A DNA stretch of 64,000 nucleotides, taken from positions 6,852-70,851 of the forward strand of contig CADBVV010000007.1 in assembly GCA_902798205.1 (NCBI GenBank), read 5' to 3'. Both the position numbers and the translations under genes were made by a program. This document shows, piece by piece, positions 10,202-15,450 of this stretch. Source of the DNA: an uncultured Pseudomonadota bacterium (lineage in GTDB: Bacteria; Pseudomonadota; Alphaproteobacteria; Rs-D84). Below the pieces are notes generated by a model that was not told where the DNA came from, ran no database searches, and saw only the letters and a program-made list of their open reading frames with translations. Each line of letters opens with the position of its first letter. Positions within the stretch are counted from its first letter, which is position 1.

Positions 10202-11065
10202 ATGAAAATTCGCGAATTATTTCTTTTCAGTTCTGTATTAATGTGCCCTGCTTTTGCATATGGGGCATGTTCTGTTGCTAATTTAACACGTTGTCTTGAT
10301 TTCGTATGTGCAATAAACATTGGCGCAAATCCGGCGGCACGTTGTCAATATTGTGGTTCTGCATCTGCGGGTGAACCGACAAAATCAACCGCAATGAAAA
10401 GTATTTCTGCGGGTGCATCTGCAAAATACAATATTTCTGACAAGGAATTAAAAAAGGCACCATCTGATCCGGGTGAAAGATATGTTTGGGGAACCAAATT
10501 ATGTTTGGAAAAAGTTTCTGGTTGCACCCCAGATGATGTGACAGATAATTACGATAAATTAATTGAACAATCTTGTACGGCGGCTGGCATTTCATCTGAT
10601 ATGGCCAGTTTGGCAAAGAAAGCAAATACAAAAAAGACACAAAGTTCATGTTCAACCGAAATCAATGCATGTGTGATTGATGCAAAACGTTGCACTGCAG
10701 ATTACAGAAATTGCGAATCGGATGCGGACTTTGATAAATATTTTGCAGAATGCGGTGTGTTGTCCACCGGATGTGAAGAATTCTTGACCGCAATCCGCAC
10801 AGATTTGGCATCTGCACGCAAGACCGCAATTGCAAACGCAGACCAATTATTAAAGAATATTGTTGCCGCATATAAATCTGCACGCGAACAAAAATTGAAC
10901 AGCGCACAAACATCTTGCAAGAATAACAAGGCCAGATTAGATTGCGTTTCCCGCGTTTGTGCCAGCAACATGCGCAACAAATGTGAAATTGGATTTGATT
11001 ACGAAAAAACAGTCGCAGAACAATTATGTAAATTCTATGACACAGCATGCGAAAGGTTGAAATAA
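10202..11065 (+). CDS. Secreted cysteine-rich protein
   Basis: Signal peptide MKIRELFLFSSVLMCPAFA; about 20 Cys in the mature region. Confidence 0.8.
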   Translation: MKIRELFLFSSVLMCPAFAYGACSVANLTRCLDFVCAINIGANPAARCQYCGSASAGEPTKSTAMKSISAGASAKYNISDKELKKAPSDPGERYVWGTKLCLEKVSGCTPDDVTDNYDKLIEQSCTAAGISSDMASLAKKANTKKTQSSCSTEINACVIDAKRCTADYRNCESDADFDKYFAECGVLSTGCEEFLTAIRTDLASARKTAIANADQLLKNIVAAYKSAREQKLNSAQTSCKNNKARLDCVSRVCASNMRNKCEIGFDYEKTVAEQLCKFYDTACERLK

Positions 11066-11066
11066 A

Positions 11067-12736: not shown

Positions 12737-14098
12737 TTGAAAACAGAAATGAAAATGAATATGAAAATCTTTACAGTTTTAATGTTAGCATTGACCACAA
12801 TGCCCTGCTTTGATGCAAAAGCGTATGATTGTGATGGTATATCAGAAAAAGCTGTTAATTGTTCTATAAATAACGAAACAGGAAAATGCAGTGGTGATAA
12901 TTTATATTTTGGACGCCTTAAACAACAAGCAGATATACAATTCAGACAGATAATAGATAAAGATATTTTGCAATCAAAAAATCGTGAAAAAATTCAAAAA
13001 GCACAAAAAGACAAGAAAACATATGTTCTATCTAAAGTGAAAGAATATTGTCAAGAACTGGTAACAGCAGGTACAAAAGCGGCTGAATCTGAAAAAACAT
13101 TTCAAACATCTGGTATGGTTGCAACTGCACAGAAAAACACTTTAACCACAGCAACAAACTCTGCACCTGTTTACGCAGAAGAAGAACCTGAAATTGTCCA
13201 AGGCGAAGTAATGACTTTACCAAAAGAATACGAAACCAACAGTAGTCGTGGAAATGCTGTCGCTTCTGGTTCACCACGTGCAAACATTAATTCAATTGTC
13301 GCATCTGATGTGGAAAAACAGGCACAAGAAAGCAATAACCAATCAAGCATTTCTTCTGCAAATCGCGGACTTACAGTTTCCGGGGGACCAACGACAAAAA
13401 CGACTCAAAAGTCCGCACAAGGCACAAACTGTCCAAACGGTACGAAATACGATACAAAAAAACAAAAATGTATATATGAAAAACAACCTATTAGTTCATC
13501 AACCAATAATTGCTTCGTTTATTCTTTTTCATATTATACCAGTTTATCGGGTGAGCTTTTAAAAGAACAAGATAAATATTTTACCCAATGGCAAAATGCT
13601 TGCAAGAATCTTGCTTCATGCAAACATGCAAAAGAAATGATATGGGTAAAAGATGGAAAACGCGGGCTTAATGCATCAGACCAAGCAGATATTTATTACT
13701 GTGACCCAAAGATATGTTTGGACGGTTCTCAGCCAAAAGATTATAAATGTCCTGAAAAAAACCAAAATATAGAAAACGCAAAAACCGGCGAATGCAAAGA
13801 TTCTTATTTTGGTGTTGGAAAATATGATGAAAATGGGAAATGTAAAATTGAAAAATGTAGTGATGAAAAAAATTATACATTGAATACAACAAAGAATAAA
13901 TGTGAATTAAAAACAACTGCTAATATTCGTGAAAAATCAGAAGCTAGAAAAGAAGCCAAGGCGCAATCTGCGGCGGAAAAAAAGTATGAATCTGATATTA
14001 ATGAATTGATTGATGCATATAATACGGTTATGAAAAAATTCGTATCTGAATGCACATCTGATGGAAAAACATTTAAAAAGACGGGGTGCGAAGGATGA
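12737..14098 (+). CDS. Secreted cysteine-rich protein
   Basis: Signal peptide (true start probably ATG 12749-12761); CPNGTKYDTKKQKC and CKIEKC...YTLNTTKNKC modules. Confidence 0.75.
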   Translation: MKTEMKMNMKIFTVLMLALTTMPCFDAKAYDCDGISEKAVNCSINNETGKCSGDNLYFGRLKQQADIQFRQIIDKDILQSKNREKIQKAQKDKKTYVLSKVKEYCQELVTAGTKAAESEKTFQTSGMVATAQKNTLTTATNSAPVYAEEEPEIVQGEVMTLPKEYETNSSRGNAVASGSPRANINSIVASDVEKQAQESNNQSSISSANRGLTVSGGPTTKTTQKSAQGTNCPNGTKYDTKKQKCIYEKQPISSSTNNCFVYSFSYYTSLSGELLKEQDKYFTQWQNACKNLASCKHAKEMIWVKDGKRGLNASDQADIYYCDPKICLDGSQPKDYKCPEKNQNIENAKTGECKDSYFGVGKYDENGKCKIEKCSDEKNYTLNTTKNKCELKTTANIREKSEARKEAKAQSAAEKKYESDINELIDAYNTVMKKFVSECTSDGKTFKKTGCEG

Positions 14099-15450
14099 TT
14101 ATGAAACGTGCCTTTTTATTGGTTGCTTTGATTGTTGCACCAAACATCGTTTTTGGTGATGGATATAATATTGGTGAATTAAAACAGACTATTTTATCTG
14201 CGAAAAATGCGACTGCCGCAACAGAGGCTTTAAACAACGCGGCAACCACAGTTCATAATGACAACAACACGGAAAGTAACACCGAATTAAAAACATCGCT
14301 TACAACAAAAATTACCGATGCAATCAAAGCGTATGACGAAGTAAAACCAACCGATACACGTACCAAGGAACAAAAAGAAACAGATTTAGCCGAAAAACAA
14401 AAGGCTTACGAAGACGCAAAAGCCAACGAACAATCGACTGCTAATAAAACATTGACGGCATTATCTACTGCGGCAACTGGTATTGGCGGTATGGAATTGG
14501 CAATGGGTTTATCCGAACAAAAGGCGGATAAAGATGCGGCACAATCAATGGCGGCATATATCGCAACCATGCGTTGTACATATGGCGATGGCAAACAGGT
14601 CAAGGCCGGACCAGAAGAAATCGAATTACCAGGTGGTAATAATCAACAATTGATGAATCTGCGCGCGGAATATTTTGCATTGGCAAATGATTTGAAAGAA
14701 CGCAAAACCGCATTGAATATGAAACCGGGTATCGAAAGCGAAGAAATTTTGGACAAGGCCGCAACCGGACTTTATGACGATGAAATGGTTGGTATAACAT
14801 CCGGCGCATATGAATCATTATATCGTGCACAAATGTTGGGTTCAGAAGCCGACCAGGCAAAAATTGATGCCCAGGCCAAAGAAGCCAAAAATCGTGTTAT
14901 CGCCGGTGCAGTTGTTGGTGGTGTCGGTGTGGTTGGCAGCATGGTCGGTAATTCCCTTATCAACGGTAAATTGGGTGAATTAATCAAAAAAGATAAAAAC
15001 TGTAAATCTATTGAAAAACTTTATAAAACAACAACTGATTCTTCGGAAAAGTTGAAATCTTGTTTAAAAGACGGTGGCGCAAGCAATACAGATGAATTAT
15101 CTTTTGATTATTTCCAGGCTGATTGGTTGTCTTTATCTGGTATAAAATGCAAAGATTTAAACCTCGACGGTAAAGATGCAAAAAGTTTATTCAAAGATTC
15201 TAACAGTTTAGAAGATGTCAATGAGATAGTAGAGAAACTGAAAGACTCTTTTGGTGACAACAATACTAAAACTATGTTGGGCGCAAAAACCACCGGTGAC
15301 CCAGATTTACAAGATGCATTAAGAACCAAGATTGAAAAACGCGCATCTGAATATAAAGATGCATTGGACAAAGATGAAAAAAGTGGATGTAATTCAAGTT
15401 TCCTTGACGGAATAAAAACAGGCATTATTGATGCAAAGAGCGCCAGCTAA
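14086..15450 (+). CDS. Secreted protein with two Gly/Ala-rich hydrophobic segments
   Basis: Signal peptide MKRAFLLVALIVAPNIVFG (start 14095 or 14101, overlapping the upstream stop); TAATGIGGMELAMG and IAGAVVGGVGVVGSMVG. Confidence 0.75.
   Translation: MRRMIMKRAFLLVALIVAPNIVFGDGYNIGELKQTILSAKNATAATEALNNAATTVHNDNNTESNTELKTSLTTKITDAIKAYDEVKPTDTRTKEQKETDLAEKQKAYEDAKANEQSTANKTLTALSTAATGIGGMELAMGLSEQKADKDAAQSMAAYIATMRCTYGDGKQVKAGPEEIELPGGNNQQLMNLRAEYFALANDLKERKTALNMKPGIESEEILDKAATGLYDDEMVGITSGAYESLYRAQMLGSEADQAKIDAQAKEAKNRVIAGAVVGGVGVVGSMVGNSLINGKLGELIKKDKNCKSIEKLYKTTTDSSEKLKSCLKDGGASNTDELSFDYFQADWLSLSGIKCKDLNLDGKDAKSLFKDSNSLEDVNEIVEKLKDSFGDNNTKTMLGAKTTGDPDLQDALRTKIEKRASEYKDALDKDEKSGCNSSFLDGIKTGIIDAKSAS

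Follow-up and report, generated by a model that had tools for sequence, protein, structure and literature searches.

A conserved cluster of exported cysteine-rich and glycine-zipper-like proteins in the gut lineage Rs-D84: a candidate modular envelope or surface complex

In autotransporters, trimeric autotransporter adhesins and two-partner secretion systems, a constant anchor carries interchangeable N-terminal passengers, which are either fused to it or encoded next to it. Here we analysed a cluster of four genes, designated G1 to G4 (positions 10202-15450, + strand), in a 64,000-nucleotide stretch of DNA (the window) from an uncultured alphaproteobacterium of the lineage Rs-D84 (GenBank assembly GCA_902798205.1, contig CADBVV010000007.1, positions 6,852 to 70,851 of the forward strand). 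The cluster and its relatives show a similar arrangement, with the conserved core of G4 in the place of the constant anchor. In contrast to autotransporter-type display, however, the G4 core is helical rather than a beta-barrel and matched neither the autotransporter models of Pfam nor a PDB entry, no translocator was found, and G1 and G2 are always linked. At the system level the cluster can cautiously be filed as a variant of modular envelope or surface display, which comprises at least three new protein families.

Several other described systems share single properties with this locus. The chlamydial OmcA, OmcB and MOMP are exported Cys-rich envelope proteins of a host-dependent bacterium that provide rigidity through disulfides, and G1 to G3 may be alike in this respect; TraN, the adhesin of F-type conjugation, combines 22 conserved Cys with a variable tip for cell contact and also recalls the cluster. 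Pfam, however, matched neither of them, and G1 and G2 are helical with a 7-residue Cys spacing. Large, fast-evolving, Cys-rich exported proteins are known as well from the episymbiotic CPR/Patescibacteria, DPANN and Omnitrophota and resemble the relatives of G3 and G4. Those giants belong to other phyla and no homology was detected; in Rs-D84, by contrast, such variable proteins are linked to a small and strongly conserved base of three proteins. The mitochondrial CHCH proteins with their twin CxnC motifs and the Helicobacter Hcp/Sel1-like proteins also place Cys 7 residues apart on helices, which in G1 and G2 would fit stapled antiparallel hairpins. Neither family was matched by Pfam, and the six-Cys units here, C-x6-C-x4/6-C-x6-C-x12-14-C-x6-C, span about 45 residues. 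The retention of peptidoglycan by Enterousia, the lineage of the related loci, was counted as a further difference from the chlamydial complex (PMC12306168).

The glycine-zipper proteins (the N-terminal channel region of VacA, the GxGxGxG of the ATP-synthase c-ring, and SlyB, Pcp and the Rickettsia 17-kDa protein) have small-residue patterns in common with G2 (L-G-x-G-x-G-x-A-x-G) and G4 (G-x3-G-G-x-G-x2-G-x3-G). Patterns of this type permit tight helix packing in oligomeric rings, and the top PDB profile match of the G4 segment was indeed ATP synthase subunit c, at a non-significant score. G2 and G4 nevertheless differ from these families in lacking significant similarity and a lipobox, and their segments lie mid-chain between disulfide-rich domains and not at a terminus. 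At E up to 1, neither G2 nor G4 matched the Pfam families Gly-zipper_Omp, Gly-zipper_OmpA, Gly-zipper_YMGG and Rick_17kDa_Anti, and PDB sequence and fold searches returned no match that would indicate kinship with VacA-type toxins. Some relatives of G4 end in a domain of the OmpA/MotB/Pal type, unlike the G4 of the window, in which PF00691 gave no match. Finally, the K/E/A-rich stretch in the G2 tail resembles the periplasm-spanning domain II of TolA, although the topology of G2 is opposite, with the Cys-rich domain N-terminal to the hydrophobic segment. Taking an uncleaved N-terminal transmembrane (TM) anchor, a K/A/E-rich domain II and a C-terminal domain III as the mark of TolA, we rejected G2 as a TolA, since Pfam gave no TolA match and its hydrophobic segment comes only after a cleavable signal peptide and a Cys-rich domain of 330 aa.

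The four genes are tightly packed. G1 (10202-11065, 287 aa), G2 (11067-12731, 554 aa), G3 (12737-14098, TTG start, 453 aa) and G4 (14095-15450, 451 aa) are co-directional and separated by 1, 5 and -4 nt. For G4, the ATG at 14095 is the start used by the database cluster P0121 and forms an ATGA overlap with the G3 stop, while an alternative GTG at 14086 would yield 454 aa. A promoter-like site, TTGATT-17-TGgTATACT with a TG extension (10156-10184, + strand; a consensus match only, from a consensus scan), ends 18 nt 5' of the G1 start within the 135-bp spacer shared with a divergent ankyrin-repeat gene. Downstream, a bidirectional hairpin resembling an intrinsic terminator (AAAACACCCGCAATTGCGGGTGTTTT, 15477-15502, both strands), with a perfect 11-bp stem and T runs on either side, separates G4 from the convergent rplI and is common to the G1-G4 and rplI-rpsR-rpsF operons. 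The abutting or overlapping genes and common terminator proposed in an earlier sequence-only reading, made by a model from the letters of the window, were thus found as described, with one promoter-like and one terminator-like site for the whole cluster.

All four proteins carry a Sec-type signal peptide by inspection, again as that reading had proposed. The basic n-region, the hydrophobic core of 10-15 residues and the small residues at -3/-1 of an AxA-type site are present in the four N-termini and in those of the orthologues, with cleavage at AYG|A, ANA|A, AKA|Y and VFG|D in the order G1 to G4. Cys is enriched in the first three proteins, with 21 residues in G1 (7.3%; about 20 had been counted before), 16 in G2 (2.9%) and 19 in G3 (4.2%), that is, 3.5-9 times the median of the other 50 open reading frames (ORFs) of the window (0.82%). 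No GC anomaly was found at the cluster, and paralogues of its genes were absent elsewhere within the window. The four-gene cluster is genuine and beyond chance.

Linkage in relatives had been set in advance as a refuting test of the sequence-only reading, and the genes stayed together. We compared the 80 best related loci, whose G1 identity ranges from 54 to 87%. G2 lies directly 3' of G1 in 80/80, and in 39 of the 44 loci whose sequence extends 7 kb or more downstream, G1-G2 are followed by the G4 core. The ankyrin gene is present in 76/80, in 71 divergently upstream and in five shifted to a downstream place on the same strand. The setting next to ribosomal protein genes, in contrast, was retained only in the about 30 closest loci. 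Since the set of ankyrin gene, G1, G2 and G4 survives rearrangement, it can be argued to form a functional unit. The Cys residues are equally persistent: all 20 of mature G1, 15 in G2 and one in the G4 core are invariant, and for G1 and G2 this holds across relatives 50-87% identical. Judged from these comparisons, the conserved unit is G1, the N-domain of G2, the G4 core and the ankyrin gene. The proposed machine of four subunits therefore needs revision: G1, G2 and G4 stay linked, but G3 proved to be an optional head.

These loci belong to the Ca. Enterousia lineage. They come from gut or rumen metagenome-assembled genomes labelled Enterousia or (Alpha)proteobacteria, with four exceptions (one 'bacterium', two Rickettsiales and one Muribaculaceae, the last probably mis-binned), and include a closed genome of 958,618 bp. 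For G1, the databases contain 744 homologues, and relatives occur in 261 species-representative genomes; the sole named source is 'Candidatus Enterousia merdequi', and every name found for homologues in the sources reads 'hypothetical protein'. Ca. Enterousia corresponds to the order Rs-D84 and consists of rod-shaped bacteria with genomes below 1 Mb, which possess peptidoglycan and lack flagella, the tricarboxylic acid cycle, respiration and standard transporters for sugars, amino acids and peptides (PMC12306168, PMC13196213). They are predicted to get metabolites from other cells and are common in ruminant, horse, chicken and human guts; no machinery for such interactions has been described in them (PMC12306168, PMC13196213). 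The host-dependent organism surmised from the letters alone is in keeping with this reduced-genome lineage and its predicted dependence on partners (PMC12306168). The rest of the window is largely housekeeping, encoding DsbA, RecO, a SurA/PpiD-like protein, TIM, GrpE, a choloylglycine hydrolase, ribosomal L9/S18/S6, arginine biosynthesis, Rho, LptC/LptB, enolase, FtsH, GroEL, PFOR and an autotransporter with PMP repeats. Because genes for lipopolysaccharide (LPS) transport, an autotransporter and DsbA are among them, the organism is an ordinary LPS-bearing diderm, and the cluster is chromosomal.

G1 is the best conserved protein of the cluster. After a signal peptide (aa 1-21, by inspection), its mature chain contains 20 Cys, many of them at 7-residue spacing (C150-157-164-171, C184-191, C276-283), and Cys 7 residues apart would lie on one helix face. 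The unit C-x3-[YLI]-x2-C-[MIV]-x3/5-C, noticed in the sequence-only reading, was located at C150-C164 of G1 and at C136-C148 and C207-C219 of G2. In addition, G1 149-218 aligned with G2 206-281 with the Cys in register (BLASTP E 0.004), and the two profiles aligned over 97 columns with eight Cys matched (hhalign E 0.007). These alignments are weak but coherent and suggest that G1 and the G2 N-domain are paralogous. G1 was also considered as a lipoprotein, in which case its orthologues should share a lipobox, L-[AS]-[GA]-C, whose Cys is the +1 residue. This was rejected: the window protein reads YGAC and orthologues read GAGC, ASSC, ATTC and AQSC, and the residue before the first Cys is not kept as G, A or S.

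G2 begins with a signal peptide (aa 1-28, by inspection) and a low-complexity linker, followed by the conserved Cys-rich helical domain with its 15 invariant Cys (aa ~100-340, nt ~11364-12083). Its Cys are arranged in two six-Cys units with the pattern C-x6-C-x4-C-x6-C-x12-14-C-x5-6-C; one such unit together with the next helix is the part that aligns with G1. A Gly-rich hydrophobic helix, SSAMLGSGVGSAVGMITSGAI, follows at aa 360-380 (nt 12144-12206), in which L-G-x-G-x-G-x-A-x-G-x3-S-G-A-x2-R is invariant, and the remainder is a variable tail, K/E-rich and then S/T/P-rich (aa 381-554, nt 12207-12728). G2 tails open with a K/E/A-rich stretch of up to about 150 aa. Four or more Cys were counted in 24/43 tails, and the number was even in 25/26 of the tails with any Cys; moreover, the Cys modules of relatives' tails are homologous to the signal-peptide-proximal heads of G4 (E 2e-11). 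G2 as a simple bitopic inner-membrane protein was rejected, as its tail bears disulfide-type modules homologous to exported heads. A profile match between G2 and G4 (28 columns, E 0.06) was not used.

G4 combines a signal peptide (aa 1-21, by inspection) and a helical stalk with a core defined by orthologue conservation (aa 104-295, nt 14404-14979). The core is framed by two Gly-rich segments. Segment 1, TAATGIGGMELAMGL (aa 119-140, nt 14449-14514), is weakly hydrophobic; segment 2, NRVIAGAVVGGVGVVGSMVGNSLING with the core zipper RVIAGAVVGGVGVVGSMVGNSLING (aa 266-291, nt 14890-14967), is clearly hydrophobic (Kyte-Doolittle 1.7-1.9). The Gly-rich segments claimed earlier for genes 2 and 4 are hence present, and segment 1 of G4 is an additional, weaker one that had been overlooked. 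Between the two segments lies a loop of about 125 aa with the invariant motifs C161, ELPGG, GLYDD and SLYRA, where Cys161 is the single invariant Cys of the core. The AlphaFold2 (AF2) model of G4 is helical with a mean confidence score (pLDDT) of 72.9. Its values exceed 90 at aa 300-430, in agreement with a confident fold for the C-terminal helical domain with four Cys (aa 303-432, nt 15001-15390), and drop below 50 exactly in both Gly segments, a pattern that would be expected where a structure needs membrane or partner proteins. At 50% identity, the family of the G4 core falls into 866 clusters, and G4 relatives have Cys modules on both flanks of the core.

Some relatives of G4 are giants. 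In P0410, P0436, P0448, P0458 and P0460 (1839-2387 aa) the core lies near the N-terminus after the signal peptide, although P0410 lacks a clear signal peptide at its start. The core is followed by about 700-900 Cys-rich aa, next by Gly/Ala-rich, marginally hydrophobic segments and then by about 1000 almost Cys-free residues, which in P0436 include a Kdo/WaaP-type kinase-like domain. Such a layout recalls an AB toxin or a trans-envelope sensor.

The position of G3 turned out to be the most variable. G3 is exported with 18 Cys in the mature chain. Its close relatives, which tblastn/phmmer over the related loci found only in L008, L031 and L023, share with it just the signal peptide and the last ~100 aa (aa 352-453, nt 13790-14095). 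Across 45 loci, a head was fused to G4 in 22, was a separate ORF between G2 and G4 in nine, as here, and was missing in 14. Fused heads exceed 250 aa, reach 1098 aa and carry a signal peptide like that of G3; the separate ORFs measure 129-1489 aa, with the signal peptide present. From this comparison, G3 is best described as a detachable, fast-evolving and optional head of G4 rather than a fixed subunit. In one locus (L081:132-9329) tandem head and G4 cassettes lie between G2 and rplI, in the order of a 1489-aa Cys-rich head, a 506-aa G4, a 144-aa ORF, a 478-aa Flg_new head and a 442-aa G4.

The building block of the heads is a 4-Cys module, C-x4-C-x2-G-[YF]-K-x6-C, and the most Cys-rich of the G3/G4 relatives cited has 113 Cys in 1588 aa. 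This module is near, but not identical to, PROSITE EGF_2 (C-x-C-x2-[GP]-[FYW]-x4-8-C). Its one PDB match, laminin gamma-1, was weak (E 0.49), and neither G3 nor six long relatives matched Pfam EGF at E<0.01. In a set of 55 long members of the family, Pfam identified Trypsin in 14, CarboxypepD_reg in six, Flg_new (the Listeria-Bacteroides repeat) in five and Ank in one. An OmpA-family tail (PF00691) was found in L050 (aa 1453-1538, E 3e-13) and L040 (aa 832-934, E 5e-10), and in 0/55 of the other long G4-family members. The earlier statement that no domain is recognisable accordingly holds for G1-G4 of the window, but not for the relatives, whose G4 cores can bear trypsin-like, Flg_new, CarboxypepD_reg and occasionally OmpA_C domains. 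As a separate observation, L082 (3247-7023) encodes a member of the G4 family with a trypsin-like head away from the usual cluster, adjoining a resolvase and a nucleotidyltransferase; further 3' are a 308-aa protein with four Gly/Ala-rich hydrophobic segments and a 227-aa Cys-rich secreted protein. This arrangement is possibly a mobile variant of the system.

The divergent gene (6636-10067, - strand), 135 bp from G1, encodes an exported protein of 1143 aa. Its signal peptide is followed by two ankyrin repeats (aa ~25-90), a basic stretch and a hydrophobic helix (aa 120-138); a poly-Gly linker then leads into some 600 residues without assignment, and the C-terminus is beta-rich, with HRLGI as its end in every case. 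Pfam recognised only Ank in this protein and six orthologues. The sequence-only reading had called it an ankyrin-pseudoprotease gene; the divergent orientation and the ankyrin repeats were borne out, but the pseudoprotease part was not supported, as Pfam S8 was unmatched and the GTS-like site reads GTTDM. A weak match to NCBIfam mycosin (E 0.014) spans 40 residues. An autotransporter was not supported either, with PF03797 unmatched in the window protein and the six orthologues, while the positive control, the window gene 48029-51955, gave E 4e-33. The strongly hydrophobic helix (insertion score -1.4) is TM-like and stands between the signal peptide and a probable outer-membrane region, which is a topological puzzle.

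A DsbA-like thiol:disulfide oxidoreductase is encoded at 134-955 (- strand; PF01323 E 3.5e-18, PF13462 E 1e-18), where a nearby membrane-anchored DsbA had been pointed out before; both the DSBA/Thioredoxin_4 match and the anchor, an N-terminal helix with a favourable insertion score, were recovered. It is likely a disulfide-forming accessory outside the cluster proper. Its re-oxidation is puzzling in a lineage reported to lack respiratory chains, and neither DsbB nor VKOR was seen within the window. The mostly even-numbered invariant Cys, the signal peptides and this DsbA fit disulfide-stabilised extracytoplasmic proteins. The earlier proposal of disulfide stabilisation is in line with these mostly even and invariant Cys, and the disulfides themselves stay predicted.

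Hydrophobic segments placed in the middle of exported chains call for an estimate of their fate in the membrane. We summed the Hessa scale independently of position, with the values of Hessa et al. 2005, which makes the estimate crude. The sums were +4.5 kcal/mol for the G2 segment, +4.7 for G4 segment 2 and +5.8 for G4 segment 1, with family medians of +4.2 for the G2 segment and +5.3 for G4 segment 2. Genuine TM helices of the window (FtsH, the DsbA anchor, the MotB-like protein and others) ranged from -5.2 to +1.9, and the signal peptides of the cluster from +3.2 to +5.2, which is typical of signal peptides. With such high sums the Gly segments would be poor stop-transfer signals; probably, they are exported with the rest of the chain instead of acting as plain inner-membrane anchors. 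Three features place both flanks of the Gly helices outside the cytoplasm, namely even Cys counts, homology between tails and heads, and the OmpA_C tail. The odd number of invariant Cys in G2 (15) and the single one in the G4 core are compatible with an intermolecular disulfide in one compartment. The ankyrin protein is built likewise, with a signal peptide and then a mid-chain hydrophobic helix upstream of a long region.

Taken together, the cluster and the ankyrin gene may encode an envelope or surface complex that is particular to this lineage, is stabilised by disulfides and serves as an anchor for variable contact modules, a tentative reading to which we give somewhat less than even weight. 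In it we infer, from sequence, the disulfides, the physical association, the membrane insertion, the surface exposure and the function alike. The proteins would be Sec-exported and then oxidised in the periplasm, with DsbA encoded nearby. G1 and the paralogous G2 N-domain would form helical hairpins stapled by disulfides spaced at 7 residues and provide the conserved scaffold. The Gly-rich helices of G2 and G4, too rich in Gly to be retained in the inner membrane, would be exported and pack into an oligomeric bundle or ring, sitting in a membrane reached from outside the cytoplasm, either the own outer membrane or that of a partner cell. The odd Cys of G2 and that of the G4 core could link the two proteins covalently. 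Such a constant base would carry the fast-evolving modules, namely the G2 tail (a charged stalk with 4-Cys EGF-like modules), G3 and the G4 heads of relatives, with an OmpA-type peptidoglycan-binding tail in occasional relatives. The likely role would be to hold this transporter-poor bacterium on the partner cells that it needs, perhaps with some exchange between them.

Several points weigh against this picture. A path for secretion through the outer membrane was not seen, although the unassigned C-terminus of the ankyrin protein would offer one if it were a barrel. For a simple surface model the topology does not add up: heads and tails of G4 bear the same type of Cys module, and the tails would be periplasmic if OmpA_C binds the cell's own peptidoglycan. 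The 125-aa loop of G4, free of disulfide-type Cys, also fits a cytoplasmic loop between inner-membrane helices. The AF2 model of G1 is all-helical but of low confidence (pLDDT 57), and the insertion estimate is crude, as stated. Furthermore, the rumen is strongly reducing, and exposed disulfides might not persist there.

The loop in particular leads to the alternative that fares best, an inner-membrane tether or scaffold. Here G4 would be a two-helix hairpin with a cytoplasmic 125-aa loop and periplasmic Cys-rich ends, G1 and G2 would be its periplasmic partners, and with some relatives bound to peptidoglycan through OmpA_C the system would stabilise or space the envelope in the manner of Tol-Pal or OmpA, with no cell contact. 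That the G4 loop has one Cys and its flanks are Cys-rich in relatives agrees with this, as do the C-terminal OmpA_C of L050 and L040, the Kyte-Doolittle values of 1.7-1.9 in segment 2, the likeness of the K/E/A stretch in the G2 tail to TolA domain II and the setting of the cluster among housekeeping genes. G2 would be left unexplained, however, since its single hydrophobic segment has disulfide-type modules on both sides and is not bitopic, and the Gly segments (+4.5 to +5.8) score like cleavable signal peptides and not like anchors. A housekeeping tether in the periplasm would not usually carry hypervariable heads of the trypsin-like and Listeria-Bacteroides-repeat kinds, OmpA_C is infrequent (0/55 long members), and the lone Cys161 of the loop is the numerical counterpart of the odd Cys in G2. 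Weighing both sides, we consider a tether doubtful, though it deserves to be kept in mind.

Conserved, exported hydrophobic helices of the GxxxG/GxGxG type in G2 and G4 could also belong to a released toxin or translocator, whose zipper helices would enter a target membrane and form a channel or deliver domains in the manner of VacA or AB toxins. The ankyrin protein has a mid-chain hydrophobic helix, ankyrin repeats are frequent in effectors of host-associated bacteria, and giants such as P0436 show an AB-toxin-like layout. Even so, this seems quite unlikely: no similarity in sequence or fold to pore-forming toxins was found, G1-G4 of the window lack an effector-like domain, the OmpA_C tail of some relatives points to retention on the producer envelope, and the near-universal presence at a fixed chromosomal site by ribosomal protein genes suits a structural component better than a toxin. 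A mobile-element, phage-derived or defence cassette, or a set of spurious ORFs, is next to negligible as an explanation, for although the trypsin-head G4-family gene of L082 adjoins a resolvase and the G3 slot turns over fast, the cluster shows no GC anomaly, keeps its chromosomal context across 80 species-level genomes as well as its invariant Cys, has no integrase or phage genes nearby and left no G1 or G4 relatives in viral contigs, so that a phage or mobile origin is effectively refuted for G1, G2 and G4.

The viral search just mentioned covered 2.9 million contigs of IMG/VR and returned no relatives of G1 or G4; nor did the neighbourhood of the cluster, made up of housekeeping genes, contain integrase or phage genes. 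A match to a characterised, unrelated family had been the second refuting test set beforehand, and none was found in Pfam, NCBIfam, the PDB or Foldseek. Pfam and NCBIfam scans of G1-G4 gave nothing above threshold; faint matches to DUF7795, Ntox28, CBM_14 and UCR_TM were well under the cut-offs and were discarded. PDB sequence searches with single proteins and profiles of G1-G4 returned nothing below E 0.07. With Foldseek, the G4 model had no match at E<0.1 in the PDB or BFVD, its tape-measure-like matches at E 0.3-1 being judged generic long-helix noise, and the G1 model had no match.

The cluster takes up ~0.5-0.9% of the genome and is found in at least 261 species-level genomes. Because a strictly conserved base is combined with heads that are modular and hypervariable, no other candidate for the contact or attachment apparatus of the lineage is as concrete at present. 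One of the new families, with 866 sequence clusters, is a helical 'anchor' core, and Gly-rich helices between exported disulfide-rich domains represent an architecture unexplained by current topology rules. A bolder version of the surface-complex reading, which we regard as unlikely, is that the G4 core, the G2 helix and G1 form a new, purely alpha-helical glycine-zipper mode of membrane anchoring from the periplasmic or outer side, in the own outer membrane or in that of a partner, and the base of a contact or conduit organelle. If true, the organelle would attach the cell to others, display swappable heads (proteases, adhesin repeats and the kinase-like effector domains of the giants) and let the cell obtain metabolites.

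Several neighbouring genes of the window deserve a short mention. Downstream of the cluster, 16959-18128 (+) encodes a polytopic membrane protein without a Pfam match and adjoins 18157-19257 (+), a MotB-like protein with an N-terminal TM helix and an OmpA-family domain. This pair (16959-19257) looks stator- or TolQR-like, though the lineage is reported to lack flagella. A functional tie to the cluster was set aside: adjacency was seen only in the about 30 closest loci, and the two are regarded as neighbours only. The product of the gene 48029-51955 (-), used above as control, is an autotransporter of 1308 aa; it combines polymorphic-membrane-protein (PMP) repeats as in Chlamydia with a canonical beta-domain and adds a further large surface protein to this small genome. 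Three genes upstream of G1, a member of the choloylglycine hydrolase family (4964-6046, - strand, E 2e-66) resembles bile salt hydrolases, which fits a gut habitat. Within the arginine cluster, ArgC-like and ArgJ genes are followed by a 675-aa fusion of an ArgB-like amino-acid kinase and an ArgD-like class-III aminotransferase (22877-24904, + strand). Four further ORFs had no Pfam match, namely 25960-26910 (+), 27753-28697 (-), 32277-33062 (-) and 46586-47980 (+); among these, 25960-26910, with 11 Cys, and 32277-33062 begin with signal-peptide- or lipoprotein-like N-termini and may be lineage-specific envelope proteins.

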